Assembly: GCA_918292005.1 (NCBI GenBank)
Contig: CAKJZJ010000017.1
Location: 5,051 to 69,050, forward strand
Reading direction: 5' to 3'
Source: Clostridiales bacterium
GTDB lineage: Bacteria; Bacillota; Clostridia; Christensenellales; UBA1242
Length of the DNA: 64,000 bases
Part shown: piece after piece, positions 4,994 through 60,208 of the stretch
Layout of the letters: every line of letters starts with the position of its first letter
Numbering within the stretch: position 1 is the stretch's first letter
The notes under the pieces: generated by a model
Told to the model about the DNA's origin: nothing
The model's input: only the letters and a program-made list of their open reading frames with translations
The model's database searches: none
Translations under genes and position numbers: made by a program

Positions 4994-5434
4994 ATGTGTC
5001 AAGTGAATACTTTTATGTTTAAAGATGGTGAATTGGACGGAGAAAAATTGATAGATATTATCAAAATTTTTCAGTCTGATGGCTTTACAAATTTTTACGA
5101 ATACAATAATCCACATTTGCGTAATATTAGACGCGACCTAAGACTTTTCGGCTGTGGAAATTTCTGCGATTGTGGTAGCGTACTTACCAAAAAAGTGGTA
5201 GTAGATGAAATGGTCGAACATGAAGAGAGCAGAAAGCTCATAGATATACTATCCAAAACTCTAAATGTGGTAGATACTGCATATGTATTTACGCATTGGT
5301 ATAAAGGCAATAATGATATCGCCCAAGAGAGAGTGGTATTAGAGCGTGCCCCTAAACAGGTAAAACTAAAAGACCTAAGTGAGCAAACCTTTAGGGATAT
5401 GTTTTACAATGAGGTACTAGAAGTAACGAGATAA
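4994..5434 (+). CDS. Hypothetical protein (146 aa)
   Basis: ORF with GGAG RBS at 4979-4982, its own promoter and a terminator. No recognisable family. Confidence 0.75.
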   Translation: MCQVNTFMFKDGELDGEKLIDIIKIFQSDGFTNFYEYNNPHLRNIRRDLRLFGCGNFCDCGSVLTKKVVVDEMVEHEESRKLIDILSKTLNVVDTAYVFTHWYKGNNDIAQERVVLERAPKQVKLKDLSEQTFRDMFYNEVLEVTR

Positions 5435-8400: not shown

Positions 8401-10042
8401 AGTCGTCATCTACATTGTGAATTATTGTTACAGGATCGTCTAATTTATTAGTAATGACTGGCAGTAATAGATTTTGACTATTGATATATTTTACTATATC
8501 TATCATTCCTTCTGCTTCTTCAAACAGATTTACATTTGCAACTGTAGTTAATTCTTCGATGGTATCTAGCAACAAATCATTTATTTTTTCGTCTGCCGCT
8601 AGTCTAATCTCATTATTTGCCACATAGTTAGTTGCGGCAGGTAGGAGATAATCGGCTAGACAATTTAGGAATTGTACTTTTTTACTTTGAGCCAATAGAT
8701 CTTCGACAGCAGTGATTATTTCGTTTAGTTCGGCTTGAGTCATATTCGCTATGCCGTGCTCATTGACCTTTTTGTATAGACCGAAGGTTTTATCTGCTTG
8801 GACAATGGTGCCAACTAGATTTTGGATATCATCTCTTAAGACAATCTTTTTACCATTAATAGTGGTAGATGTTAATTGGTCGAAGCCAACTAGGTATAAT
8901 TGCTCTAGTCCGATGCTATTGCCCAAAGTATGCATGAGAGATGTTTCATAACCTTTTAGAATCTGTGTTGCTAATCCACCACTTGCTGAGTCTAGAGAGT
9001 ATGTCGTTTCGGTAACATTTTTAATCTCGGTATCTTTGTTGCTCTCTAAAATATTAAGCAAACCATATAGTGGCATCATGGTATTGATAGTTATTACCAA
9101 TCCTACCACCGATCCTACTAGGGCGCCTAGCAGTCTGTGTTTTTTAGGTTTTACATATTTTTCGTCAGAGTCTTGTCCACGATGTCTAGGCTCTTTTACT
9201 TTCTGTGGTTTTTCTTTTTTAGCTTTGCCTTTTGCATTATTGGTATCATTATGTGCTTCTTCGAATGTTGGCATATTACTAGCACCATGAGCATTGGCTG
9301 TTGCGATGTCTTCTTCTTTCTTTATAAACATTCCGACATCACTAGTAGGCTCTGCTTTTGCAGGTTCGGCACTAGTTGTAGCCATTTCCGATACACTAGG
9401 TGTAAGTTTGACAGGATCTTCTGCAGGTGGTGTGGCTGGAGTCTCTGGTGCAGGCTGTTGAGTCTCTGGTTGTGGTGTTGGAGTGGGTGGTGTAGGTGAC
9501 GACTCTGCACTAGTTGTTTGAGATGGGTTGGATTGTAGTGGTTTGGTATTATCATCGTCGCCAAAATCCCATGCTGAAAATCCCATTGCTTCTTTTTTCT
9601 TTCTTTTCCTATCAAATATAGCCTTATATAGTAGATGGTCGATAGGTAAAAGCAGATATTTGAACAGCCAGAATAAAAGTAAATATACAAATGCATTGAC
9701 TAGTATTAGTGGAATGGAAGTTAATACTGAAACGAATTGTGGATTTTTGGTGATGAATTCTTCACCTAAAAATGCCTTTATGTATGCGACAATTATATCA
9801 GATATTTTTACACTACCATGCACTATCTCTTCGCCATTATATGTAATGGTGGTATTGATAGGGATATTCAAAAGTAGTTTAGTCAAAGGCACGGTAATAA
9901 AGAGAAGAATGACACTAGTAATCAAAAGAAAAAGTAGACGACCAGTTGTTCTTTTTAGTCCCCTTATTAGTCCCCAAAGTATTCCGAAAAAAATAAATAC
10001 TGCCAAGGCTATGGTAAAGCCCATTTGTATATATCCACTCAT
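5474..10042 (-). CDS. Giant membrane-anchored protein (1522 aa): CvpA-like N-terminus, Pro/Thr-rich insert, helical repeat region
   Basis: N-terminal TM helices (ILWGLIRGLKR; RLLGALVGSVVG), a low-complexity PTPPTPTPQPE segment and a recurring W-x2-E motif. Confidence 0.8.
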   Translation of the reverse strand: MSGYIQMGFTIALAVFIFFGILWGLIRGLKRTTGRLLFLLITSVILLFITVPLTKLLLNIPINTTITYNGEEIVHGSVKISDIIVAYIKAFLGEEFITKNPQFVSVLTSIPLILVNAFVYLLLFWLFKYLLLPIDHLLYKAIFDRKRKKKEAMGFSAWDFGDDDNTKPLQSNPSQTTSAESSPTPPTPTPQPETQQPAPETPATPPAEDPVKLTPSVSEMATTSAEPAKAEPTSDVGMFIKKEEDIATANAHGASNMPTFEEAHNDTNNAKGKAKKEKPQKVKEPRHRGQDSDEKYVKPKKHRLLGALVGSVVGLVITINTMMPLYGLLNILESNKDTEIKNVTETTYSLDSASGGLATQILKGYETSLMHTLGNSIGLEQLYLVGFDQLTSTTINGKKIVLRDDIQNLVGTIVQADKTFGLYKKVNEHGIANMTQAELNEIITAVEDLLAQSKKVQFLNCLADYLLPAATNYVANNEIRLAADEKINDLLLDTIEELTTVANVNLFEEAEGMIDIVKYINSQNLLLPVITNKLDDPVTIIHNVDDDFSNQLVERILSLKLVNTTIANVFNIGLTALDNSIHFGYVKNDIEKDDFIDRFTEIINEAFDTAKTISNDSPIYLTQESLVPLGQLLNTIKDGGIINTETYNNVISYTTRKLKQLTPNAIPKVFKDYVNNSLLENIGDVTDWAVEMGKIDTALNILRDKDNGILGKVQEGYNKRVGYSIEFSMSETIINNFGAFLDALETSQLFGGNTNIYDSTETIYASTSVTKLLTTILNYAHEQISEKADSGLRDMLSIIKDMQDNIIRCGHSTTDEDFWTDEISKVSPLISNVYNMLQDSSNNGQFELSNSLGSDLDRAKKSNLLGGDTTLKIVNIAMDKVKEMVLGANYEDSGTDTLNDKINALFTDIKDTLEDANTTTIMQDDNDFWTKEISCFKSLQKLSEDSGNISNISACLAIAEDIDKAYTSRLIPATSLDGIIATVIRQIKTNDTTGINGKINTLIENIATDIEDPTFFATETNPDGHSRVNFWATELNHINRLKSLDLDNSTSSNLADNIRFIGVEIDKVVDGYTDGEDIIRGSYLITEPRVRDLLATAIEEMSGDIVDSFDATMSTIIGTAVTSIKNNIANTSIEISSFAYELGNIATLTTLDISKDIFNIPTGTDIGSTIDSIAFNTIETSDHLYMQYSDNNSKIVTRTILNTLIKDTFGLAKNNSTTNTYETVFNDLIDNIQDSINTIAITQNKVFSWEKELAFVTKLTSMNKDQEYSLDNASTTIATNIDAIAFNTFDQNNTPLRYNDLIYSSTNLEGGYSAYEVDNNRVNSLFITRTILKDAVASLVEDFKVSGAAAGSKDEITNDLIDNISTTINTGAYNTAGNYKTYVELFTELNTVKDDMESLSNSITTSSDIISDAKATELDVYLDTTQAKLICGVVTTRKVAKMILSEVRDNVVDAIHTAHPELTDTQINNSQTMQYIDALESHYTNKANSTTPENYNVTTPDTYDNPFRSILAKYNAEFNSTP

Positions 10043-10281
10043 ATATAGTCCCCTAATATGTAATATAATAACTTTATTCTATCATATAAGTAGTTTTTCT
10101 CAAAATGTTATAAATAAAGAAAAAATATAAAATATATCATATTTTCCACATTTTTTGCAGAAAAAAACATTGAAATGATAAATATTTTTAATGTTTGATG
10201 TGTCAAAGTGTGTTGATTTTGTTTGTCAATTGTGTGGCAAAATTATATACTTGAGAGTGATAAAACAAAAGTGGGTGGCAT

Positions 10282-10737
10282 ATGAAAATAATTTTGCAGA
10301 GAGTGAATAGGGCAAATCTTACTAGTGGAGAATACAAAAGTAATATAGGTGGCGGATTACTTGCACTGATTGGTGTGGGTAAGGGGGACACCGAATATGA
10401 TGCTATGTATCTAGCACGTCGTGTGGCACAACTAAGGATATTTGAAGATGGTGATGGCAAGTCCAATTTATCCATTTTGGATATAAATGGAGAAATAATG
10501 TGTGTGAGCAATTTTACCCTACTGGCTGTGACTAAAAAGGGTACAAGACCAGATTATTTCGAAGCAGCAGGTAGAGAAGAAGCAGTGCATTTATATGAAT
10601 TATTTGTGACAGAAATAAAAAAGTATGTAAAGACCAATGTGGCTACGGGTAGTTTCGGCAATCACATGGATATTGATTGTAGTCTAAATGGACCATTTAC
10701 TATTACTCTAGAATCGGCAGGTAGAGATCATGAATGA
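10282..10737 (+). CDS. dtd: D-aminoacyl-tRNA deacylase
   Basis: MKIILQRV, LRIFED, SNFTL and the C-terminal NGPFT (Gly-Pro) motif. Confidence 0.9.
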   Translation: MKIILQRVNRANLTSGEYKSNIGGGLLALIGVGKGDTEYDAMYLARRVAQLRIFEDGDGKSNLSILDINGEIMCVSNFTLLAVTKKGTRPDYFEAAGREEAVHLYELFVTEIKKYVKTNVATGSFGNHMDIDCSLNGPFTITLESAGRDHE

Positions 10738-11086
10738 GAAATTATTGGCTTTATTCCATTATTTTGAACATCTGAAAGTGGTGGAAACAATAGTCGCAGA
10801 AATAATACAGATGGATCATTATGTGTATGATTTTGTAGAAGATGAAGCCATCGCACTTATAGACCATTACTTAACCAAATACAACAAAGAAATCAAAGAA
10901 ATTGGCCATATATATAAAAACAGAGTGGTCATAGAAGATGATCCCAATGTGTATGATACCAAAGATAGTACAGAAGTCAATTCGGACGTGGAGTATATTA
11001 GGGATTGTTTGATTATCATTGGTGCAGTCAAGTCGGGTATTAGGGAGAGTTATAAGCAAGTTATAGAAGAAATAGAGGAGTGGTAA
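10730..11086 (+). CDS. Hypothetical protein (118 aa)
   Basis: ORF overlapping dtd and abutting the MarR gene. No recognisable motif. Confidence 0.7.
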   Translation: MNEKLLALFHYFEHLKVVETIVAEIIQMDHYVYDFVEDEAIALIDHYLTKYNKEIKEIGHIYKNRVVIEDDPNVYDTKDSTEVNSDVEYIRDCLIIIGAVKSGIRESYKQVIEEIEEW

Positions 11087-11087
11087 T

Positions 11088-11513
11088 ATGGATAATTTGG
11101 ATGAATTATTAGAAGAAATGCTTTGCAAAATGTATACTCAAATAATTAATAATGAAAACCGAATTTTAAAGTCTGTTAGTTCACTTTCGCAAAAGGAATT
11201 TCAAACACTAGACATGGTGTTTAGTTGTGAGAGAAATGATTGTAATACCCTAGGTACTATTGCACAGAGACTGGGTATTACACTCAGTACATGTACTATC
11301 AATGTAGATAGATTGATAGAAAAGGGATATCTGCAAAAAGTGAAATTAAATGGAGACAAAAGAGTGTCGTATATTAGTCTTACTTCAACGGGATTAACAG
11401 CCCTAAAGAAGCGAGATATTATGCATCATAGAGTCGTTAATGGTGCCATAAAAAATCTAACATCTAGTGAGAAGGTGGCCCTGCTCAGTGCCATAAATAA
11501 AATGGATATTTAA
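11088..11513 (+). CDS. MarR family transcriptional regulator
   Basis: IAQRLGITLSTCTINVDRLIEKGYL...DKRVSYISLTSTG winged-helix signature. Confidence 0.85.
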   Translation: MDNLDELLEEMLCKMYTQIINNENRILKSVSSLSQKEFQTLDMVFSCERNDCNTLGTIAQRLGITLSTCTINVDRLIEKGYLQKVKLNGDKRVSYISLTSTGLTALKKRDIMHHRVVNGAIKNLTSSEKVALLSAINKMDI

Positions 11514-11591
11514 TTTTCTTATATGGAATTATTTGTATTAAATAAGCAAATTTGATAAAATGGATGTATATAAATTTAAGAGGTGAAAATA

Positions 11592-12131
11592 ATGGATTTC
11601 AAAGATAGTAAAACATATAAAAATCTACAAGAAGCATTCGCTGGTGAGAGCCAGGCTAGAAATAAATACACATATTATGCTTCAAAGGCAAAAAAAGAAG
11701 GATACGAGCAGATAGCTGCTATTTTCGAAGAAACTGCAAATAATGAAAAAGAACATGCGAAAATGTGGTACAAACATTTGAATGGTGGAGAGGTTTCCGA
11801 TACATATACCAATCTTTTGGCTGCTGCCGGTGGTGAGAATGAAGAGTGGACAGCAATGTACAAGAGAATGGCTAAAGAGGCTAGAGAAGAAGGTTATGAC
11901 CAAATCGCTGCTCAATTTGAGGGTGTAGCAAAGATAGAAAAATCTCATGAAGAAAGATATAGAGCATTAGCCAAAAACCTAGAAGAGAATAAGGTATTTA
12001 CAAAAAATGGCGAAAAGGTATGGATTTGCAGAAATTGTGGTCATGTACATGTAGGTAAATCTGCACCTAAGGTATGCCCTGTTTGCGCACATCCACAGAG
12101 TTATTTTGAAGTAAAAGCAGACAACTATTAA
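11592..12131 (+). CDS. rbr: Rubrerythrin
   Basis: [16 protein letters not shown], ExxH di-iron motifs and a C-terminal CRNCG...CPVC rubredoxin. The start is at ATG 11592, because GTG 11583 lies within the RBS. Confidence 0.92.
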
Positions 12132-12278
12132 AATTGATAAAAGACCTAATGATATATGTCATAAGGTCTTTTTTTTATTCATAAATTTTAGTAGTAAAAA
12201 TTTTGTGCATATAGACTTGTGAAACTACGGGTTGTGTGGTATTATTAAATAGTTATTTTTTTTGATACGGGTGTATAC

Positions 12279-12986
12279 GTGGCAGAATATATTGGTAAAA
12301 TCTTTTCAGAGATATTTGGCTCACATTCTGGGCTAGCAACATTACTAATATCCATGTTCCCCCTGATAGAACACAAAGGTGCTATTCCAATAGGCATGAG
12401 TGTGGATTTCTGGGGGAGAGATGCTTTGACTGGTGGTGAAGCATTGCTTTTTGCATTGTTGGGTAGTTGTGCTATAGTGCCAATACTAGCATGGATATTT
12501 ACACCGATTATTAGATGGCTGAAATCTACTAGAGTTTTCAGAAAACTAGGAGAATTTATTGAGAATAAAATAAAGAAAAGTTCAAAGAAAATAGATGACA
12601 AAACACAACATGAAAAAAATAAATTCCGACGCACATTCCTGAAATGTCTAGCAATATTTGGATTTGTGGCTGTGCCACTACCTATGACTGGTGTGTGGAC
12701 TGGTACATGTGTGGCAGTGATGATAGGTCTTAATTATTGGCAAACTATTCTATCTGTGGTGCTGGGCAATATTGTGGCAGGGACAATTATTATGGCAGTA
12801 TGTCTAGCGTTCCCAGAGTTTACAACCATTCTTGTTTATATATTCTTCTTAATAATATTTGCAATGATAGTATTTGCAGTTATTCGAATCATAATGAATA
12901 CTATTAGAGAAAAGAAAAAAATAGCAGAGCCAGCAGTAGATAGTGATGAAATGACTTCATCTGATGAAGAAAACAAAAATGCCTAG
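12279..12986 (+). CDS. Small multidrug export (COG2426-like) membrane protein
   Basis: SMFPLIEHKGAIP and FVAVPLPMTGVWTG motifs. Confidence 0.8.
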   Translation: MAEYIGKIFSEIFGSHSGLATLLISMFPLIEHKGAIPIGMSVDFWGRDALTGGEALLFALLGSCAIVPILAWIFTPIIRWLKSTRVFRKLGEFIENKIKKSSKKIDDKTQHEKNKFRRTFLKCLAIFGFVAVPLPMTGVWTGTCVAVMIGLNYWQTILSVVLGNIVAGTIIMAVCLAFPEFTTILVYIFFLIIFAMIVFAVIRIIMNTIREKKKIAEPAVDSDEMTSSDEENKNA

Positions 12987-13005
12987 AATAAATCTAGACA
13001 TTTTT

Positions 13006-14511
13006 TTATGTTATTTTTCTTTTTCGACTTCGGCGATCCCTGTGTTGTGTGGTGGTGTCCGTAGAATCAGTCGCCATGTTGGGTTCTTCATTATTGGTGT
13101 CAATCTGATTGGTAGAGTCGGTCTCTGGTATAGTCTCAGATGACTCTAATAATTCAGGTTTGGCACTTATATTATTATCTTTTCTTTTACGATCTTTCAG
13201 TATAATATTTGCAATGATACCGACAATTAGGGCGCAGGCAATATTAGGTATTTCTAATGCTTGGAATTTAAGGACCAGACCACCAATGCCACAGATAAAT
13301 ATAGATGATATCACAAATAGATTTTTTGAATTATTTAGATCGATATCTTTTATCATTCTTAGACCAGATACTGATATAAATCCATATAGAGCAATACATA
13401 TACCACCTATAACACAACTAGGTATGGAAGCAACGAAAAGTACTAGTGGATAAAAGAATGCGGTAATGATACATAGTATACATGCTGTGAATATTGTCCA
13501 TGTTGAACCGTTTTTAGATAAAGCTACACAGCCGATAGATTCGCCATAAGTAGTATTTGGACAGCCACCGAATAGTGCGCCTACGAATGAGCCTAGACCG
13601 TCTCCTAAAAGTGTGCGATGTAGTCCGGGAGTAACAAACAAATCACTACCTATGATAGAACTAATATTTTTGTGGTCAGCAATGTGTTCGGCGAAAGAAA
13701 CTAGCGATATAGGAACAAATAATAGGAAGATGGCTAAGATATCACCAAACGATGTGATTTGTGATGCCCCCTCGGTAAATAATCCCACAAATGTTAGATT
13801 TGGTAACCAATTATTAAAGTCTGTAATTTTGGCAAAAACACCAAAGTCAATGAGCTGTAAGTATGGTGTTTCTGACAATAAACCTATAATTGTGAAGAAG
13901 CTTGCAATAATGTAACCACCCAAAATGCCAACAATAAAAGGAAACATTTTTAGTTTCTTTTTACCTTTTACCGATACCCAAATAACTATAACGAATGTGA
14001 CTATACCTACGAAGATTGATAGTAGATTGTAATTGGCGGGGTCGGATGCTGTATTCATCAGATTATTAATTGCCGATGCAGATAGGTCAAATCCAATGAG
14101 TGCAACGGTCGGTCCAATTATTATAGGTGGCATGATTTTGTTTATCCAGTTCACGCCAACTTTTTTTGTGATTAGTGCTAGGATTATGTATACTAGGCTA
14201 GAGAATACTGCACCTAGTAATATTCCAAAATATCCAAATGATACTGCAGTAGTCAATGGTACGAGAAAGGCAAATGAACTACCTAGCATGACTGGACTTT
14301 TGAATTGTGTACATATTAGATATATTATAGTTCCAACTGCCGCTCCTATGAGTGCTGCTGACTGTGATAGGTGCGTACCACTAGGGTCAGCGAGTAAGGG
14401 GACTAGCATGGTGGCTGCTATTATTGCTAAATATTGCTGTAGAGCAAAAAGTAAATTTTTGCCGAATGGTAATTTTTCGTGTACCTGATACACCAATTGA
14501 TTATTTTGCAT
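13006..14511 (-). CDS. uraA: NCS2 family uracil/xanthine permease
   Basis: LGSSFAF, EHIADH, TLLGDG and PNTTYGESIG motifs. The start is placed just after the yjjX stop. Confidence 0.85.
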   Translation of the reverse strand: MQNNQLVYQVHEKLPFGKNLLFALQQYLAIIAATMLVPLLADPSGTHLSQSAALIGAAVGTIIYLICTQFKSPVMLGSSFAFLVPLTTAVSFGYFGILLGAVFSSLVYIILALITKKVGVNWINKIMPPIIIGPTVALIGFDLSASAINNLMNTASDPANYNLLSIFVGIVTFVIVIWVSVKGKKKLKMFPFIVGILGGYIIASFFTIIGLLSETPYLQLIDFGVFAKITDFNNWLPNLTFVGLFTEGASQITSFGDILAIFLLFVPISLVSFAEHIADHKNISSIIGSDLFVTPGLHRTLLGDGLGSFVGALFGGCPNTTYGESIGCVALSKNGSTWTIFTACILCIITAFFYPLVLFVASIPSCVIGGICIALYGFISVSGLRMIKDIDLNNSKNLFVISSIFICGIGGLVLKFQALEIPNIACALIVGIIANIILKDRKRKDNNISAKPELLESSETIPETDSTNQIDTNNEEPNMATDSTDTTTQHRDRRSRKRKIT

Positions 14512-19262: not shown

Positions 19263-19379
19263 TTTTTCACCTAATATATTTATATTTCATGGCTTTTAAT
19301 TCATGCTTTATTTTATATAAATGATAAGAAAAAAATCATGGATTGTCAAATTTTTTGCTAGTGATAATAAAAAAGCAGG

Positions 19380-21214
19380 ATGGGTTATCAATTTTGAAAT
19401 TTGCAAAAAAGACTAAAAGTAAATTTAGTCTTCTTTTATATTTACAAATTTCCAGTGATAACCACCAGAGCTTTGAGATTTACCTTTACAACATACAGAT
19501 ATAGCACTACGGCTCACATTTATGGTTTGTGCCGCTTCCTTAATGCTATTATAAATAATGCCTGTATCTAAATTAACGACTTTTTTATAATGTGAAGATA
19601 TAGTTATTTGTCTTGCACACTTTGGACAGTTGCGACCTCTTACTCTACAACTAGGACTGGTTTGCCATTCGTAGCCACATTTCTTACATTTCCACCAGTA
19701 TTTTTTATTTGTTTGTGGTCTGATTTGATATGGTTTAATATCGCCATTTTTTTCATAATGCCATTCTTTTACAATTTTAGGAAACAATGTTTCTAAATCA
19801 TTATCGCCAGATAATACTTTTTGTCCAGCACAATATGGACAACCACATTTCATACTGCCTGCTCTTGATGAAACAGTTGCTTGCCACTCGTGTCCTTTTT
19901 TGCACTTCCACCATACTTTTTTATCACTACCTAGTGTAACATATTCAGGATTAACTTTGTTCCTATCATAATCCCATTCGTTTATTAAAATGTGGTTAGC
20001 GATACTATTTTCTTTTGATATTGTTAAAGCTTTATTTAGTATTTTCATATAATCATTTTCAATGTTTGGGGTTGAATTAAGGTTTGTATTAAAAGCTTTA
20101 TTAATAAAATCAAATGTTTGTTTAATAATTTCTTTAAGTTGTAAAATAGGGTTTTTATAAATATTTACATATACGAGATATGAATTTGTTTCATATTCAG
20201 GACAACCAATCTCACGAATACGCACTAGTTTTAAATTATTTTTAGCACATAGTTGATCTTTTTTAAAATCACGTTCTATATTTTTATGCCATTGCCTACC
20301 ATCATATTCTATACCTAAATTTAATTCTGGTATAAATATATCAATTTCCATTGTGTTTAACCAATCAAAATGTTTACTCTCTTCGATTTTAAAATATTTT
20401 GACAAGTAATATGATAATGTTTTTTCTCGAATAGAAGTTTTTAATTCATTTTTACAATATGGACATTCAGTTTTTAAACCAGCTCTTGATCCAATTGTTG
20501 CCAACCATTCATGACCTTTTTTACATTTCCACCAAATCTTTTTAGTCATTCCATGGCTAACCTCTTGTGGGGTTAATACATTTTTTTCATAATTCCACTC
20601 TTTTAACAATTCAGGATGTGTCGTTGCTAAGTCATTTACTCCCACAATGATTTTTTGACCTGAACATATTGGACAAACAATTCTACCTTCCGTCATGTGG
20701 CAAACTTTCGCTTGAAAAACATGTCTTTTATCTTTATCACAAATCCACCAAACTTTTTTGTTGCAATGTGGAAAAATTTCACTTGGTTTTTCTTTATTCA
20801 AATCATAATTCCATTTTCTTGCTATTTTTGGAAATAATGTTTGTAAATCATTTTTACCACTCACTAAGATTTTATTTGCACATGCCGGACAACCTTGTCC
20901 TTTATTTCTATTATTACAGATGCTTAACCATTCATAATTACAAATGTGGCATTTCCACCATGCTTTTTTATTACTACCAAGAGTTGTTTTGTCTGGAAAA
21001 ATACCAAGAGAATTATTTTTCTCCCAGTTCCATTCTTTCATTAACTCTTTGTTGTTTATTATATAATCTTTGATCATATGTGTATTATAACATAAAAATA
21101 ATAAAAAGTCTCGAATTGACCAAATTTTTGTGTTAAGAGAGAATTAAAAAACACCCTAACTTTTTCAAGTTAAAGTGTTAATTATTTGGCTAGTTTCAAA
21201 AGTCAGCAACTATA
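19380..21214. mobile_element. Cassette A: non-autonomous element with conserved ends, inserted in the degV terminator loop
   Basis: Both ends are shared with 40242-42339. Flanked by AAAAGCAGG (19371-19379) and CCTGCTTTT (21216-21224). Boundaries are uncertain by about 3 bp. Confidence 0.75.
19425..21077 (-). CDS. Zinc-ribbon repeat (DUF4379-like) protein with Vsr/DUF559-like nuclease and NUMOD1-like C-terminus
   Basis: Five WWxC...CPxC modules, central EIDIFIPELNLGIEYDGRQWH, and C-terminal YNSIKEAAQTINVSRSAISVCCKGKSQSSGGYHWKF. Confidence 0.8.
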   Translation of the reverse strand: MIKDYIINNKELMKEWNWEKNNSLGIFPDKTTLGSNKKAWWKCHICNYEWLSICNNRNKGQGCPACANKILVSGKNDLQTLFPKIARKWNYDLNKEKPSEIFPHCNKKVWWICDKDKRHVFQAKVCHMTEGRIVCPICSGQKIIVGVNDLATTHPELLKEWNYEKNVLTPQEVSHGMTKKIWWKCKKGHEWLATIGSRAGLKTECPYCKNELKTSIREKTLSYYLSKYFKIEESKHFDWLNTMEIDIFIPELNLGIEYDGRQWHKNIERDFKKDQLCAKNNLKLVRIREIGCPEYETNSYLVYVNIYKNPILQLKEIIKQTFDFINKAFNTNLNSTPNIENDYMKILNKALTISKENSIANHILINEWDYDRNKVNPEYVTLGSDKKVWWKCKKGHEWQATVSSRAGSMKCGCPYCAGQKVLSGDNDLETLFPKIVKEWHYEKNGDIKPYQIRPQTNKKYWWKCKKCGYEWQTSPSCRVRGRNCPKCARQITISSHYKKVVNLDTGIIYNSIKEAAQTINVSRSAISVCCKGKSQSSGGYHWKFVNIKED

Positions 21215-21222
21215 ACCTGCTT

Positions 21223-22059
21223 TTATTTATCAAGGAAAAGTACTCCTATACAATTCTCGCCACAATGGCTAGATATTGTGCCACCTGCTCTGGTAGGGTA
21301 GATGTGACCAAATCCACGATCTTTCAGTATCTCTGTGATGGCTGTTTCGGCTTCGGGCATGTCGGTCGAACTAGTGATAAATACATAGTCTAGTTCGGGA
21401 TCGGGGTGGGATACTAGCAAATCTTTGCAGTATTTGATGGCTACTTTGTTTATGTCGCCGGTGTATTTTTTACCTACACCCATTTTGCCATTAGCGACAA
21501 TGATTTGTGGTTTGATTCTTAGGATATTAGCACCCAACATTGCTAGAGCAGAACATCTGCCACCTTTGTATAGATAATTGAGTTTTTCTAGAACAAAACT
21601 TGCTTGGGTTTTTTCGGTCAGTTTGTTTATAGTGGCGACTATCTCTTCTGGAGACTTGCCGGCTTTTGCTAGCTCTGTGGCTTTGATGGCCTGTAGTGCA
21701 ATACCGGTAGATAGAGTTTTGCTATCTATTACATATACGTTACTCATCTCTTTAGCTATCATAACGGCATTATTGTATGCACTGCTCATTAGAGAACTGA
21801 GTGTAATGTGTATTATTGCATCGTAGTCCTTTTTTAAGTTTTCGAAATATTCCTTGTATTGCTCTGGACTGACGGCAGATGTCTTTGGTAATTTTTTGGT
21901 TTTAGATACGTACTCAAATATATCTTTTGATATACCAAATCTATCTTTTTCAATTTTGTCACCAAAAGTTATAGAGAATGGTGTGGTGGTTATGCCGAAT
22001 TTATCTAGTAATTCTTGTGGTAAATCGATTGTGCTTTCGGCAGATATTGCTATTTTCAT
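21223..22059 (-). CDS. DegV family fatty-acid-binding protein
   Basis: LPKTSAVS, SSLMSSAY, IDSKTLSTG, YLYKGGR and ISSHCG motifs. Confidence 0.9.
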   Translation of the reverse strand: MKIAISAESTIDLPQELLDKFGITTTPFSITFGDKIEKDRFGISKDIFEYVSKTKKLPKTSAVSPEQYKEYFENLKKDYDAIIHITLSSLMSSAYNNAVMIAKEMSNVYVIDSKTLSTGIALQAIKATELAKAGKSPEEIVATINKLTEKTQASFVLEKLNYLYKGGRCSALAMLGANILRIKPQIIVANGKMGVGKKYTGDINKVAIKYCKDLLVSHPDPELDYVFITSSTDMPEAETAITEILKDRGFGHIYPTRAGGTISSHCGENCIGVLFLDK

Positions 22060-38945: not shown

Positions 38946-39650
38946 ATGTATAAAAACTTAAAAAAGATGCCTACACATATTGCTTTTATTCTAGATGGCA
39001 ATGGTAGATGGGCAAAAGAACGTGGGTTGCCTAGGTCAATGGGACACAAGGCAGGACTAGACAATTTAAAAAAGATATTGAAAGAGTGTTTTTACAAATG
39101 TGATATTCCATATGTGAGCATATATGCATTCTCTACAGAGAATTGGAATAGACCACAAAAAGAAATAGACTTTATCACAGGACTTGCTAAAAACTTTTTC
39201 GTTGATAGATTTTTAAAGAATTTTCCAGGCGTTAGACTAAATATCATGGGAGATTATACCAAATTCCCTAGTAATGTAGTAAAAATGGCAGAAGACACTA
39301 TCAATGCCACCAAGAAAAATACTAAATATGTACTTAATCTAGGTGTAAATTATAGTGGTCAAGATGAAATAGTGCATGCTATCAATGGCATTATTGCCGA
39401 TGGCATACAGAGCGTAGATAGAGATACTGTGGAGAAGTATTTATACACAGCAGGTCAGCCACCAGTAGACTTGCTGGTTAGGTCTAGCGGTGAGCAGAGA
39501 CTCAGCAATTTTATGCTATGGCAATTAGCATATGCAGAGTTTTATTTTTCCAATGTTATGTGGCCTGCTTATGATAAAAAAGAATTTCTAAAATCCCTTA
39601 TCGATTACCAGAATCGAGATAGGCGATTTGGTGGTATAAAGGAGCAATAA
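38946..39650 (+). CDS. uppS: Undecaprenyl diphosphate synthase
   Basis: HIAFILDGNGRWA, FSTENWNR and RSSGEQRLSNF motifs. Confidence 0.93.
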   Translation: MYKNLKKMPTHIAFILDGNGRWAKERGLPRSMGHKAGLDNLKKILKECFYKCDIPYVSIYAFSTENWNRPQKEIDFITGLAKNFFVDRFLKNFPGVRLNIMGDYTKFPSNVVKMAEDTINATKKNTKYVLNLGVNYSGQDEIVHAINGIIADGIQSVDRDTVEKYLYTAGQPPVDLLVRSSGEQRLSNFMLWQLAYAEFYFSNVMWPAYDKKEFLKSLIDYQNRDRRFGGIKEQ

Positions 39651-40240
39651 TGGATATATCTATTCTAAATTGGATTAATAGTAATCTTCATGGTAGTGTG
39701 GTATTTAATTACCTATTTAAATATATTACATATACTGCCGAGTGGGGCGCAATATGGTTGCTCACGGCACTGGTTTTGCTATTCTTTAGACGAACTAGAC
39801 GTGGTGCAATTATTTTGTTTATTGCCTATGGTGGTGTGGCATGTGTAAATCTTGTGCTCAAACATTTTATAGATAGACCTAGACCATTTTTAGAGAATGC
39901 AGAATTTGTATCGTTTATCGAGTCTATCAATATGAAATTGCCCGATTCTTCTAGTTTCCCTAGTGGTCATACGGCTCTGTCATTTATGGCAGCGACTGTA
40001 CTTACTCTTACCTTTGGTAAATATGGCGCATGGTCATATATATGGGCTGTGCTTGTAGCATTCAGCAGGATATTCTTATGTGTGCATTATCCTACAGATG
40101 TGCTAGGTGGTGCAATGGTGGGGGTTATCGTTGCATTCGCCGTATTCTACATTTGCAAATGGATATTCCCTAAAATAGAAAAATGGTGGCAGGATAGACA
40201 TAAGGACAAGCCTAATGAAGACAAAAATAAAAGTGCATAA
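39650..40240 (+). CDS. PAP2 family phosphatase (undecaprenyl-PP phosphatase-like)
   Basis: K...RPRP, SFPSGH and SRIFLCVHYPTDV motifs. Confidence 0.88.
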   Translation: MDISILNWINSNLHGSVVFNYLFKYITYTAEWGAIWLLTALVLLFFRRTRRGAIILFIAYGGVACVNLVLKHFIDRPRPFLENAEFVSFIESINMKLPDSSSFPSGHTALSFMAATVLTLTFGKYGAWSYIWAVLVAFSRIFLCVHYPTDVLGGAMVGVIVAFAVFYICKWIFPKIEKWWQDRHKDKPNEDKNKSA

Positions 40241-40241
40241 G

Positions 40242-42339
40242 ATGGGCTATCAATTTTGAAACTTGCATAATATTGAAGGAATCTTATTCTAGAAGGTTCC
40301 TTTTTATAATTTTTTTAAAAAAATAACATTTTTATATTCGCTTATGTTATACTATTGTTGTAGTGTTATTGGAGTATAATTATGCCAAGTGGTAAAAAAA
40401 GAACAAATGAAGAGTTTTTGAATGAGTTTAATAGAAAAAATACAAATTCATCATCTATAAAAATATTAGGTCAATATTTGAATAATAACACAAATATTGC
40501 GTGTTTATGTTTGAAATGTGGAAACAAATGGAATCCCACTCCAAAAACATTATTAAGTAATCATGGTTGCCCTAAATGTGGGAATAATCAAAAATTTACA
40601 AAACTAGAATTTCTTAATCAATTTCATAAGAATAATTCGCATTCTGAAAATATAAATGTTATTGGTGAATATGGTGGTGTATCAAAAAAAATTAAATGTG
40701 AATGTAAAATATGTAAAAATATTTGGTATACTCGTGCTGGGGATTTGATTTATTCTAATTCAGGATGCCCAATTTGTTCTGGGAGTATTACACAAACACA
40801 TAATATTTTTTTAAAAAAAGTGGCATTTAAAAATATTCATTTTAATGATATCGAATTTAAAAGTCAATACACAGGTTCATTAAACAGAATAAAATGTCAA
40901 TGTAAAATTTGTGGACACGAATGGGAACCAATAGCAAGTAGTTTGTTGCAGGGTACAGGATGCCCTAAATGTGCACAAATCAAAACATCGCAAAAAGGAA
41001 AAGAAATTCTAAAAAAAGTCAGAGACAATAACCCGGCTGTAAAAAAAATGTCTCATAAAGATTTCATAGAGAAATTATATCTAAAAAATCCTTATGCCAA
41101 TAGTATAGAAATAATAAATGAATACAAAGGCGCAAATACTAGATTAAGATGTAAATGTAAGCGATGTAATAATATATGGGAGCCAATGGCTAGTGCATTA
41201 TTACAAGGACAATTTTGTCCTAGATGTCAACATTCATCAACGTCTTTTATGGAACAATTTATTGCACAAGGTTTAATTTATGTTTTAGGTAAAAAACATG
41301 TAATTCAAAGAGATAAAAAATTGATAAATAAAGAATTGGATATTTATATACCAAAATACCAATTAGCAATTGAACCCGGCTCATGGAAATGGCATAAAAA
41401 TATTCTACAAAAAGATATTGAAAAAATAAATTTATGCAAACAAAAAGGTGTTAAATTGATCATTCTCTATGATTCATGCCCTGAAGACAATATAAAAAAT
41501 GAAAACATTATATGTTTTAAAAATGATTTAGGTAGTGAAAAAAATCATAAGACATTAAAACAATTTTTAAAATCAATATTTACACAAAATAATATTATTG
41601 TTTCAGAGGATATGACTATGTGGAGTAATATTGAACAAAGAGCATATAAATTATCTCAAAGAATTACAAATCAAGAGTTTATTGAAAAATTTAAAATAAA
41701 TAATAATCACTATGCAAACATTATCATTAAATCTCAATATACTAGAGCAATAGATTCTATTGAATGTGAATGTAAAAATTGTGGAAATATTTGGAAAACA
41801 CCAGCATATGAGTTATTAAAAGGCAAGGGTTGTCCGAAATGTCAAATAAAACAGGTTGGATTAAAGAAGCAAAAAAGAAATATAATTAAGGAATGGCGAA
41901 GACAAAATCCTTATGGAAATAAATTACAATGTGAAAAAGAAACTGGAATAAGCAGAGTTACAATTTATAAATGGTGGAATGATTAAAAATAATTGGCATT
42001 TAAACGTGTGCTAGTCTTGATACAAGTCGTTGTCGCTTCGCTCCAACGAAGACAAGCACACAATAAATAAAATCGGTTAGAAGAAAGAGTGTGTGCTGGC
42101 GTTAGCATTAGCACAACACTCTTTCATTTTTCTCTTTGTTTTTTAGTGTAAACGAATATTCTTTGTTGTCAAGGTTAAAATGTATGTCTTGTAATTGTAA
42201 ATATTAAGATAACAACGACAACCTATGACAACGGCATAATATCCGTTTTGTTGGCTGGTTAAGAGAGAATAAAAAACACTCTAACTTTTTCAAGTTAAAG
42301 TGTTCATTATTTGGCTTGTTTCAAAAGTCAGTGACTATA
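40242..42339. mobile_element. Cassette B: same end family as cassette A, inserted in the PAP2-gene terminator loop
   Basis: Shared ends. Flanked by AAAAGTGCAT (40230-40239) and ATGCACTTTT (42339-42348). Boundaries are uncertain by about 3 bp. Confidence 0.75.
40382..41986 (+). CDS. Zinc-ribbon repeat protein with Vsr/DUF559-like nuclease and C-terminal HTH
   Basis: Five CxCxxC..W...GCPxC modules, central ELDIYIPKYQLAIEPGSWKWH, and C-terminal KETGISRVTIYKWW. Confidence 0.8.
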   Translation: MPSGKKRTNEEFLNEFNRKNTNSSSIKILGQYLNNNTNIACLCLKCGNKWNPTPKTLLSNHGCPKCGNNQKFTKLEFLNQFHKNNSHSENINVIGEYGGVSKKIKCECKICKNIWYTRAGDLIYSNSGCPICSGSITQTHNIFLKKVAFKNIHFNDIEFKSQYTGSLNRIKCQCKICGHEWEPIASSLLQGTGCPKCAQIKTSQKGKEILKKVRDNNPAVKKMSHKDFIEKLYLKNPYANSIEIINEYKGANTRLRCKCKRCNNIWEPMASALLQGQFCPRCQHSSTSFMEQFIAQGLIYVLGKKHVIQRDKKLINKELDIYIPKYQLAIEPGSWKWHKNILQKDIEKINLCKQKGVKLIILYDSCPEDNIKNENIICFKNDLGSEKNHKTLKQFLKSIFTQNNIIVSEDMTMWSNIEQRAYKLSQRITNQEFIEKFKINNNHYANIIIKSQYTRAIDSIECECKNCGNIWKTPAYELLKGKGCPKCQIKQVGLKKQKRNIIKEWRRQNPYGNKLQCEKETGISRVTIYKWWND

Positions 42340-42410
42340 TGCACTTTTTATATTTGAAAAACAAAAAACACCTTTATATATTAGAAGGTGTTTTTATTCG
42401 GCTACCTTGA

Positions 42411-42623
42411 TTATGCCAAAACAGTAATGTCTTTGCTGATAATCATAGTTACAAGGTCAATGATCCAGAAAATTGGAGCTAAGAAAAAGTTAAGTATTGC
42501 GCCAATGATGTGACCTCTTTGTACTCTGGTAATAATTCCACATACAATGCTAGTAATAGGAATAATAGCCAAAATTAAGCATACAATCCAATCAAGACCG
42601 AAATATCTTTTTGAACTTGCCAT
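42411..42623 (-). CDS. Small membrane protein (70 aa)
   Basis: AGGAG RBS, two hydrophobic helices, promoter TTGACA 42714-42709/N17/TACAAT 42691-42686, and a terminator at about 42363-42396. Confidence 0.7.
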   Translation of the reverse strand: MASSKRYFGLDWIVCLILAIIPITSIVCGIITRVQRGHIIGAILNFFLAPIFWIIDLVTMIISKDITVLA

Positions 42624-43089
42624 ATTCGTACTCCTTCTAATAATTTGTAATAATTCGACCATACTTGTCGAATGATGACAAGAATATTGTATGATTTTTT
42701 TGTATATTTGTCAAGAGAATAATAGAATATTTATATGCATTGGTCGAAATTATTTGTACTATAAATTATATGAGAAATTTTGTCAGATTATTACCAAAAT
42801 TTATAAAGAGCAATAGGGATTTCCTATTGCTCAATTATGGTGTTATTTGTTGCATTTATGATTGTGCGATAGGGACAAAGTGGTATTATGATAAAAGGAT
42901 TGGCACAACCACATCTATTGCAATTATTATTGTAGTATCTATTGCAAAACATTGATGACTCCTAAATTGCAAGTGATAAGCACTTGCTAGTCTAGTATAT
43001 GTAAAGATTTGATTTTTTGTTTTCACGTAGTGTTTGCCTTGTCAAAATGGTAGATTTGTGCTAATATTATCTCATAATATAGGTGAAAT

Positions 43090-60023: not shown

Positions 60024-60094
60024 TGTCATTCTGAAATGTATCAATCTGAAAATAGCAATTTTGGCTGTGTCATTCTGAACGAAGTGAAGAATCT
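60024..60094 (+). repeat. Tandem TGTC-tagged REP-like units
   Basis: 60024-60047 (degenerate) and 60068-60094 (TGTCATTCTGAACGAAGTGAAGAATCT), the same family as 503-574. Confidence 0.75.
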
Positions 60095-60208
60095 ACTTCA
60101 ATAAAATCTAAATTTATTTTAATAAATCCGTCATCACAAACGTACAAATTCGTTTTGTGAAAAGGATATAATATGCTAAACTACAAAGTAATAAGGCAGG
60201 TATGAATC

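Follow-up and report, generated by a model that had tools for sequence, protein, structure and literature searches.

Cassette B, an insertion inside a split terminator of a Christensenellales genome, is a likely non-autonomous derivative of large serine recombinase elements

Introduction

In clostridia, the mobilizable transposons Tn4451/Tn4453 (recombinase TnpX) and Tn5397 (TndX) are moved by large serine recombinases (LSRs), carry a 2-nt core at both junctions, enter many targets, and generate no long duplication. To our knowledge, non-autonomous cargo cassettes are not a described feature of Tn4451 or Tn5397. Such derivatives are known from other systems: the cis-mobilizable elements (CIMEs) of the ICESt1/3 family and the mobile insertion cassettes (MICs; MIC231) have kept recombination ends and passenger genes but lost the recombinase, the enzyme being supplied in trans. 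Here, we analyzed cassette B (positions ~40242 to 42338), which lies inside a transcription terminator in a 64,000-nt stretch of DNA (the window; positions 5051 to 69050 of contig C17) from the genome of a Clostridiales bacterium (GenBank assembly GCA_918292005.1; 1.2 Mb, 19 contigs; G000 below). The evidence makes it likely that cassette B is a non-autonomous mobile gene cassette, derived from a family of LSR-bearing elements of gut and rumen Christensenellales-like Clostridia.

Terminators are already known as targets of other elements. Intrinsic terminators serve class C group II introns as safe landing sites, recognized largely by structure; the introns insert just after the hairpin. The insertion sequences IS1272/TnSha1 (IS1182 family) enter terminator hairpins in either orientation, with no sequence consensus and no target duplication (PMC4923244). 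Multi-targeting LSRs use many genomic sites with loose AT-rich motifs around a fixed core dinucleotide, and most members of this clade carry DUF4368 (PMC10083194). Terminators, hairpins, and palindromes go unmentioned in that study (Durrant et al. 2022; PMC10083194). Our own literature search turned up no relevant work linking LSRs or serine integrases to intrinsic terminators or terminator hairpins. New in this comparison is that LSR-element ends split terminator hairpins in the loop; terminator targeting itself is known for IS1272/TnSha1 and class C introns, with other enzymes and other insertion points.

Results and Discussion

Cassette B is flanked by a perfect 10-bp inverted repeat, AAAAGTGCAT at 40229 to 40238 and ATGCACTTTT at 42339 to 42348, which are exact reverse complements by direct reading. 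An earlier reading of the DNA letters alone (the sequence-only reading) had reported this repeat outside the conserved ends. We confirmed the repeat and the position of its right arm, whereas the left arm lies one base upstream of the coordinates given there (40230 to 40239). Both arms stand outside the ends that cassette B shares with cassette A, a second insertion in the window (19380 to 21213, plus strand): the shared left end of B begins at ~40241, and its shared right end extends to 42338. Immediately upstream lies a gene from the open reading frame (ORF) list that encodes a PAP2-family phosphatase (39650 to 40240, plus strand; Pfam PF01569, E = 2.9e-23). Its stop codon, TAA, occupies 40238 to 40240, and the overlap of the left arm with this codon that had been described is real but amounts to one base only. 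The left arm comprises an A-run and a stem, and the right arm comprises a stem and a T-run; we read them as the two halves of the PAP2 terminator, corresponding to the left and right arms of a bacterial attachment site (attB). What remains of the former loop (40239 to 40243) is AAG followed by AT at 40242 to 40243, the putative crossover dinucleotide, at which copy-to-copy conservation begins and which recurs at 42337 to 42338. The empty site would have read AAAAGTGCAT-AAG-AT-ATGCACTTTT, immediately 3' of the PAP2 stop, and the predicted unfilled sequence across the joint 40243|42339 is AAAAGTGCATAAGATATGCACTTTT.

A repeat of this quality is rare in the window. Among 20,000 random pairs of positions 2,098 nt apart, scored identically and with offsets of 0 to 8 nt permitted on each side, only 0.04% had a perfect inverted repeat of at least 10 nt (chance, ~4e-4). 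When joined, the flanks of cassettes A and B and of copy C, located elsewhere in G000, folded as hairpins with z-scores of -5 to -6, similar to the natural terminator at the orthologous locus of another cassette-bearing genome, G005. Cassette A splits the degV terminator, with arms at 19371 to 19379 and 21216 to 21224 and a target reconstructed as AAAAAAGCAGG-AT-AA-CCTGCTTTT. Its stem (GCAGG) is unrelated to that of cassette B (GTGCAT), as the sequence-only reading had held. The A-run/stem and stem/T-run flanks with their differing stems also support its proposal that the two cassettes entered different terminator loops, each just after a stop codon, independently. Cassettes A and B have the same chromosomal orientation and opposite orientations relative to the terminated gene. 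Since the AT dinucleotide is self-complementary, it would set no orientation, which fits this arrangement.

Related genomes show such sites unsplit. G005 retains the gene order up234-PAP2-dn83-dn214, and there the PAP2 stop leads straight into an intact hairpin, AAAAAAGACATATAGA-GAATCA-TCTATATGTCTTTT, beyond which a second terminator serves the convergent gene. The cassette B locus has the same two-terminator layout with the first one split; the second (42364 to 42395; direct reading) is intact and bidirectional and serves a convergent 83-aa gene (42411 to 42662, minus strand). For a cassette site on contig C6 of G005, eight congeneric genomes carry an intact A-run/stem/loop/stem/T-run hairpin, with a 4- to 9-nt loop, just past the orthologue of the right-flank gene. 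In genome G014, the orthologues of both flanking genes are visibly adjacent around one such hairpin. The comparison with relatives that had been suggested from the sequence alone was thereby answered in part: single intact terminators occupy the orthologous sites, but no same-species empty site was found for cassette B, for which exact-protein look-ups with PAP2 and the 83-aa neighbor returned nothing and a metagenome scan with PAP2 returned distant relatives only (best match, 46% identity). Flank-protein look-ups for five cassettes in named MAGs (metagenome-assembled genomes) returned filled sites or nothing, and DNA searches with the joined flanks around G005 and G008 peaked at 83% and 73% identity, respectively, at orthologous sites only. 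An intact hairpin at G002:C5:30201-30279 is 80 to 89% identical to the reconstructed target of an element in G008 (AAAAAATCACCAT...ATGGTGATTTTTT), with matches on both strands.

These loci also bear on the idea that the flanking repeats are not a host terminator but the element's own terminal repeats or an RNA clasp. Inverted repeats bordering an insert are indeed the classical signature of transposon ends. However, the arms here differ with each copy, in contrast to the conserved sequence immediately interior to them; the left arm of cassette B runs into the PAP2 stop codon; and the insert-free orthologous loci have a single hairpin at that position. We consider this explanation extremely improbable.

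The split-hairpin pattern extends well beyond the window. In G000, copy C (C2:49927-52025) has arms AAAAGCAGTGC / GCACTGCTTTT, and a 0.7-kb copy on contig C9 has arms AAAAAAACAC / GTGTTTTTTT. A scan of one genome per species for the right-end core pattern detected it at 23 loci in gut and rumen Christensenellales/Clostridia MAGs, 12 of which had both ends within reach. Nearly all of these 12 have an A-run and stem on the left and the complementary stem and a T-run on the right, with a different sequence each time (for example, AAAAAAAGAGCAAT / ATTGCTCTTTTTTT and AAAAAAACGATTGAA / TTCAATCGTTTTTTT). We assembled 20 complete elements: four copies in G000, 10 cassettes with clean junctions from other MAGs, and six LSR-bearing elements (see below). 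All 20 have the A-run/stem on the left and the stem/T-run on the right, and their stems are unrelated between copies. For 16 complete elements, the median perfect flank repeat was 10 nt, versus 5 nt in mismatched left/right pairs, a control that retains the A and T runs (Mann-Whitney P = 1e-4). The sequence-only reading had asked whether other copies are flanked in this way; every complete copy found fits, and non-palindromic flanks at chance frequency were not seen.

The junctions are equally uniform. Arms were intact and complementary up to 0 to 7 nt from the element ends. Nineteen of the 20 elements have an identical dinucleotide at both junctions, either AT...AT or AA...AA (AT/AT in cassette B), and the repeat is limited to these 2 nt. 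The conserved sequence itself opens and closes on one dinucleotide, 5'-AT RGG...GACT AT-3' in one lineage and AA...AA in the other. With the crossover put at the shared dinucleotide, the reconstructed targets were terminators for all 20 elements, having stems of 5 to 10 bp, mostly 4- to 9-nt AT-rich loops, AT or AA near the center, and flanking A and T runs; the T-run began 6 to 10 nt from the core in 19 of 20. This regularity can be set against untargeted integration in AT-rich DNA, of which only the copies in terminator loops would have survived selection. Few neutral sites exist in small genomes, and relaxed target motifs rich in AT are known for multi-targeting LSRs (PMC10083194). Yet all 20 complete elements lie inside the loop, at or near the palindrome center, with not one at any other intergenic location; were selection the sole cause, many other intergenic positions would be permitted, such as the 100- to 300-nt spacers at the same loci. 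We therefore regard untargeted integration as quite unlikely.

The ends of the cassettes link them to larger elements that encode an LSR. The cassette termini are not those of a classical insertion sequence. Their ~30 terminal nt match the ends of 6- to 18-kb elements in related genomes. G057, which also bears a cassette, encodes an LSR truncated at its N terminus; after it come, in order, a terminator, the right end typical of the family (CCGCTAGTTTCAAAACGACTAGACTAA), and a stem and T-run. With this LSR as the query, homologues were found in 201 of 401 genomes of the family. Among the 30 closest LSR loci (mostly at least 65% identical), at least 22 carry the family right end 70 to 190 nt after the stop codon, each then followed by a stem and T-run, and at one T-type LSR locus the end is nearly identical to that of cassette B. 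Retrieval of 20 kb upstream of LSR loci yielded six complete LSR-bearing elements of 6 to 18 kb with the family left end and complementary arms, including one in G008, a genome of the same genus as G000 (arms AAAAAATCACCAT / ATGGTGATTTTTT), and one in G217 (AAAAACACCAC / GTGGTGTTTTT). When joined, the element ends form an imperfect palindrome in which a perfect 12- to 13-nt distal repeat, GCTAGTTTCAAA / TTTGAAACTAGC, lies 10 to 11 nt from the core on each side and the proximal parts are only partly symmetric. Together with the identical end dinucleotides, this palindrome gives the joined ends the layout of a serine-recombinase attP site.

Annotated LSR elements have a fixed three-gene core beside the right end, consisting of ORF209 (a C-terminal helix-turn-helix and no Pfam family), ORF293 (an HUH rolling-circle Rep; PF23343, motifs LHFHGIF and YIMKYIRK), and a canonical three-domain LSR. 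The G008 LSR contains Resolvase, Recombinase, and Zn_ribbon_recom domains only (PF00239, PF07508, and PF13408); unlike most of the multi-targeting clade, it lacks DUF4368 (PMC10083194). In element L244 (G008:C1:194500-209800), ORF209, ORF293, and a 501-aa LSR lie at 9576 to 13206, and the cargo is a type I restriction-modification system and a Fic protein. Cargo of other LSR elements includes DegV and a TetR-like regulator. In cassette-bearing MAGs, the majority of LSR genes fall into other clades, and family ends were not found near them.

Cassette B itself encodes no recombinase, its sole gene product being a 534-aa zinc-ribbon protein, and none was found among the cargo of the other cassettes. 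Nor was any trace of the LSR, Rep, or ORF209 detected in G000, which has no PF00239 match and no homologue of the family LSR. Of the family's features, cassette B would retain only the two ends, derived from attachment sites, and a non-coding block that is conserved. Because it shares its ends and the 2-nt core with LSR elements, and because G000 has neither LSR nor Rep, cassette B is best read as a non-autonomous derivative of that family.

Other enzymes could in principle have moved the cassettes. A hairpin-targeting DDE transposase of the IS1272/TnSha1 type (IS1182 family), acting in trans on the conserved ends as its terminal repeats, has a direct precedent in elements that enter terminator hairpins without primary sequence specificity or target duplication (PMC4923244). 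TnSha1, however, cleaves within the stem, with loss of part of the hairpin (PMC4923244), whereas both arms are intact here and the insert lies in the loop. No DDE gene was found in any cassette or larger relative, although IS1182-type transposase profiles were not searched directly, and the sole enzyme linked to the ends is the LSR. An all-against-all ORF comparison of G000 likewise found no multi-copy transposase-like ORF. We judge such a transposase very unlikely.

We also considered a tyrosine recombinase, of the integron type or the host Xer, that would act on folded hairpins and use the right-end hairpin as an attC-like site. The cassettes are similar to those of integrons in being single-gene, promoter-variable units whose end is structured and conserved. 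Their right-end hairpin retains a conserved C-A mismatch, and G000 encodes two tyrosine recombinases (PF00589), one of them Xer-like and beside lexA. Nevertheless, the cassettes are solitary at dispersed loci rather than arrayed, no integron integrase was found nearby, and the junctions share 2 nt instead of the 6- to 8-nt overlap expected of tyrosine recombinases. Identical ends flank the LSR-encoding elements, and the sequence of the right-end hairpin is not conserved in these relatives. This alternative is quite unlikely. The attC-like reading of the hairpin was dropped, its GTT motif not being conserved, and the two tyrosine recombinases, the only ones in G000, are not linked to a cassette.

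Several further candidates were rejected. The zinc-ribbon cargo protein as a mobilizer or homing endonuclease has no homologue in cassette-bearing G001 and G005, and cargo differs with each copy. For an IS110/IS1111 bridge-RNA model, no DEDD gene (PF01548) was found in G000, G001, or G005, and cassettes B and C have near-identical modules and different targets. The Y1 HUH transposase of IS200/IS605 (PF01797) is absent from G000 and G001. A strict mobile insertion cassette derived from an insertion sequence does not match flanks that are inverted rather than direct, with only 2 nt repeated. For a class C group II intron, Rfam gave no match at E ≤ 1 over 19000 to 43000, and no reverse transcriptase ORF was found; these introns are retroelements with an intron RNA and a reverse transcriptase, neither of which was found here.

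Compared with described LSR systems, the family resembles Tn4451 and Tn5397 in comprising small elements of Clostridia with an LSR-type 2-nt core, many sites, and a separate mobilization or replication function plus cargo. The core of Tn4451/Tn5397 is GA and their targets resemble the joint of the circular form, whereas this family has AT or AA and terminator hairpins. Tn4451/Tn5397 carry a Mob/Pre relaxase, and the HUH rolling-circle Rep of the ORF2/G2P type found in this family is absent there. Like CIMEs and MICs, the cassettes share both ends with autonomous elements, carry passenger genes, and lack the enzyme. MICs, by contrast, have DDE terminal repeats and target duplications and CIMEs occupy one fixed tRNA or gene site, while the cassettes have LSR-site ends and occupy many terminators. 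IS1272/TnSha1 differs in its DDE transposase, its cut in the stem, and its partial deletion of the hairpin (PMC4923244).

Taken with the junction structure, these comparisons suggest how cassette B may have arrived, the likely agent being a trans-acting LSR, which the sequence-only reading had not recognized. The LSR would pair the joined element ends with a chromosomal palindrome (A-run, stem, loop, stem, and T-run, that is, a bidirectional intrinsic terminator) and would swap strands at the 2-nt core (AT for cassette B) in the center of the loop. The terminator would thereby be split into two inverted arms flanking the insert, with target duplication limited to the core, and the element's own outward-facing terminators would keep the neighboring genes intact and terminated. 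Since G000 has neither LSR nor Rep, cassettes A and B, copy C, and the short C9 copy would have been moved in trans earlier by an element since lost, or are now stranded. Cassettes in other genomes without a serine recombinase would likewise be stranded or be serviced by incoming elements.

More tentatively, the family LSR may read generic bidirectional terminators by geometry (dyad symmetry or an extruded hairpin, A/T runs, and a central AT or AA) rather than by a defined sequence, and may service recombinase-less cassettes in trans; we consider this plausible, if short of probable. The sequence-only reading had concluded that the insertions chose a shape, not a sequence. The stems are indeed unrelated, but the conclusion is unproven: all targets have in common an A-run, a T-run, and a central AT/AA, which are readable as a degenerate motif. 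Recognition of a loosely defined symmetric motif, in which an A-run and a T-run enclose a central AW, could account for the same sites.

Several observations weigh against mobilization by the family LSR. Classical LSRs are sequence specific, whereas the stems here are unrelated. Serine recombinases are absent from G000 and G001, both of which have clear cassettes, and from 5 of 20 other cassette-bearing MAGs, so co-occurrence is imperfect. Only the terminal ~30 nt and hairpin P1 (see below) are common to cassettes and LSR elements, the remaining ~280 nt of the cassette module not being shared. A same-sequence empty site was not found, the strain-level contigs found being all filled or absent. 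Finally, one of the 20 elements, L103, has AA at its left junction and AT at its right; it may be a hybrid or an old, eroded insertion.

If the proposed mechanism is true, it would add a third safe-harbor route at terminators to those of class C group II introns and IS1272, this one by way of a serine recombinase, a class of enzyme usually valued for its strict sequence specificity. The mechanism would explain how gut Clostridia with tiny (~1.2 Mb) genomes gain and exchange defense and accessory genes without broken coding sequences, and could serve to test how the zinc-ribbon and recombinase domains of LSRs accept variable half-sites. Should recognition be by geometry, the enzyme would be a natural safe-harbor integrase placing cargo after almost any gene. 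An LSR accepting any A-run/stem/loop/stem/T-run site would be of interest to integrase engineers, with the family serving as a natural set of attB variants.

The left end of cassette B, GGGCTATCAATTTTGAAACTTGC (40244 to 40270, plus strand; putatively derived from the P' arm of attP), includes the subterminal inverted-repeat core TTTTGAAAC, is present at the left end of all copies and of LSR-bearing elements, and falls within a shared region 90% identical to 19379 to 19408 of cassette A. Just inside, an internal terminator hairpin facing the PAP2 gene (40275 to 40311, plus strand; an 11-pair stem and T tail in the terminator scan) substitutes for the split terminator. The right end, GGCTTGTTTCAAAAGTCAGTGACT (42313 to 42338, plus strand; putatively derived from the P arm), includes the AT at 42337 to 42338 and is common to cassettes A and C, a remnant on contig C7, and the 23 loci in other MAGs; the shared right-end region matches 21145 to 21233 of cassette A. 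A right-end hairpin at 42274 to 42305 (minus strand; 14 pairs and a T tail) forms an outward-facing terminator kept in all cassette copies. The same scan placed outward-facing terminators 30 to 35 nt inside each end of every cassette, which for cassette B are the hairpins at 40275 to 40303 (plus strand) and 42274 to 42305 (minus strand). The cassettes bring their own outward-facing terminators, and termination of the neighboring genes is therefore restored. Insertions break no coding sequence, in agreement with the safe-harbor strategy that had been put forward.

Adjoining the right end is a conserved structured non-coding module of ~340 nt (41993 to 42338). Its stretch from 41993 to 42275 (plus strand) comprises hairpin P1 (42005 to 42060), a terminator-like hairpin (42082 to 42124), and a long three-stem hairpin domain. 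The module is present in ~20 of 25 elements, and most of it is missing from cassette A. RNAalifold predicted 71 pairs, 15 of them with compensatory changes, and the plus strand has many G-U pairs; a comparison with Rfam gave no match. P1 is the sole part of the module common to LSR-bearing elements, in which it lies upstream of ORF209 and of a rolling-circle Rep operon, and it may be a Rep origin or an origin of transfer (oriT). A candidate minus-strand promoter in the module (TTGACA-N16-TACACT) was weakened as an interpretation, its hexamers lying inside covarying stems with G-U pairs on the plus strand.

Cassette cargo is unrelated from copy to copy. The cargo gene of cassette B (40382 to 41986, plus strand) encodes 534 aa with repeated zinc-ribbon modules (CapR, PF21817, E = 9e-23; DUF4379, PF14311, E = 5.5e-15), a possible PD-(D/E)xK-like center, and a C-terminal helix-turn-helix. 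The center of this protein is 34% identical to the cassette A protein. Cassettes A (19425 to 21077, minus strand) and C (C2:49980-51629, minus strand) encode a 550-aa protein with five DUF4379 zinc ribbons and a NUMOD-like C terminus, the center of which gave only subthreshold matches to PD-(D/E)xK nuclease families (MTES_1575, E = 0.008). These two proteins are 72% identical; in the other 40 related genomes searched, nothing but a fragment in G019 was found. Besides the zinc-ribbon proteins of A, B, and C, cargo includes an HNH endonuclease, a ThaI restriction enzyme with a cytosine methylase (Dcm), a DUF262 protein, a histidine phosphatase, tryptophanyl-tRNA synthetase (TrpRS), IscR-NifS-NifU, a lipoprotein, and several small proteins of no assigned function. 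L114 and L103, which carry the housekeeping-type cargo (TrpRS and IscR-NifS-NifU), also have the weakest flank repeats.

Incomplete copies were detected elsewhere in G000. A further left end runs off contig C14. On contig C7, a right end stands alone (C7:84876-84960), lacking a T-run flank and any left end within 7 kb. Its neighbors are a DUF2075-like gene, a UvrD-like gene, and the 3' fragment of a tRNA, and it probably sits in a rearranged island. Separately, the window contains a 34-nt repeat, TGTCATTCTGAG...GAAGAATCTA, in three copies, two in tandem near its start (503 to 536 and 548 to 581) and the third 59.5 kb away (60068 to 60101).

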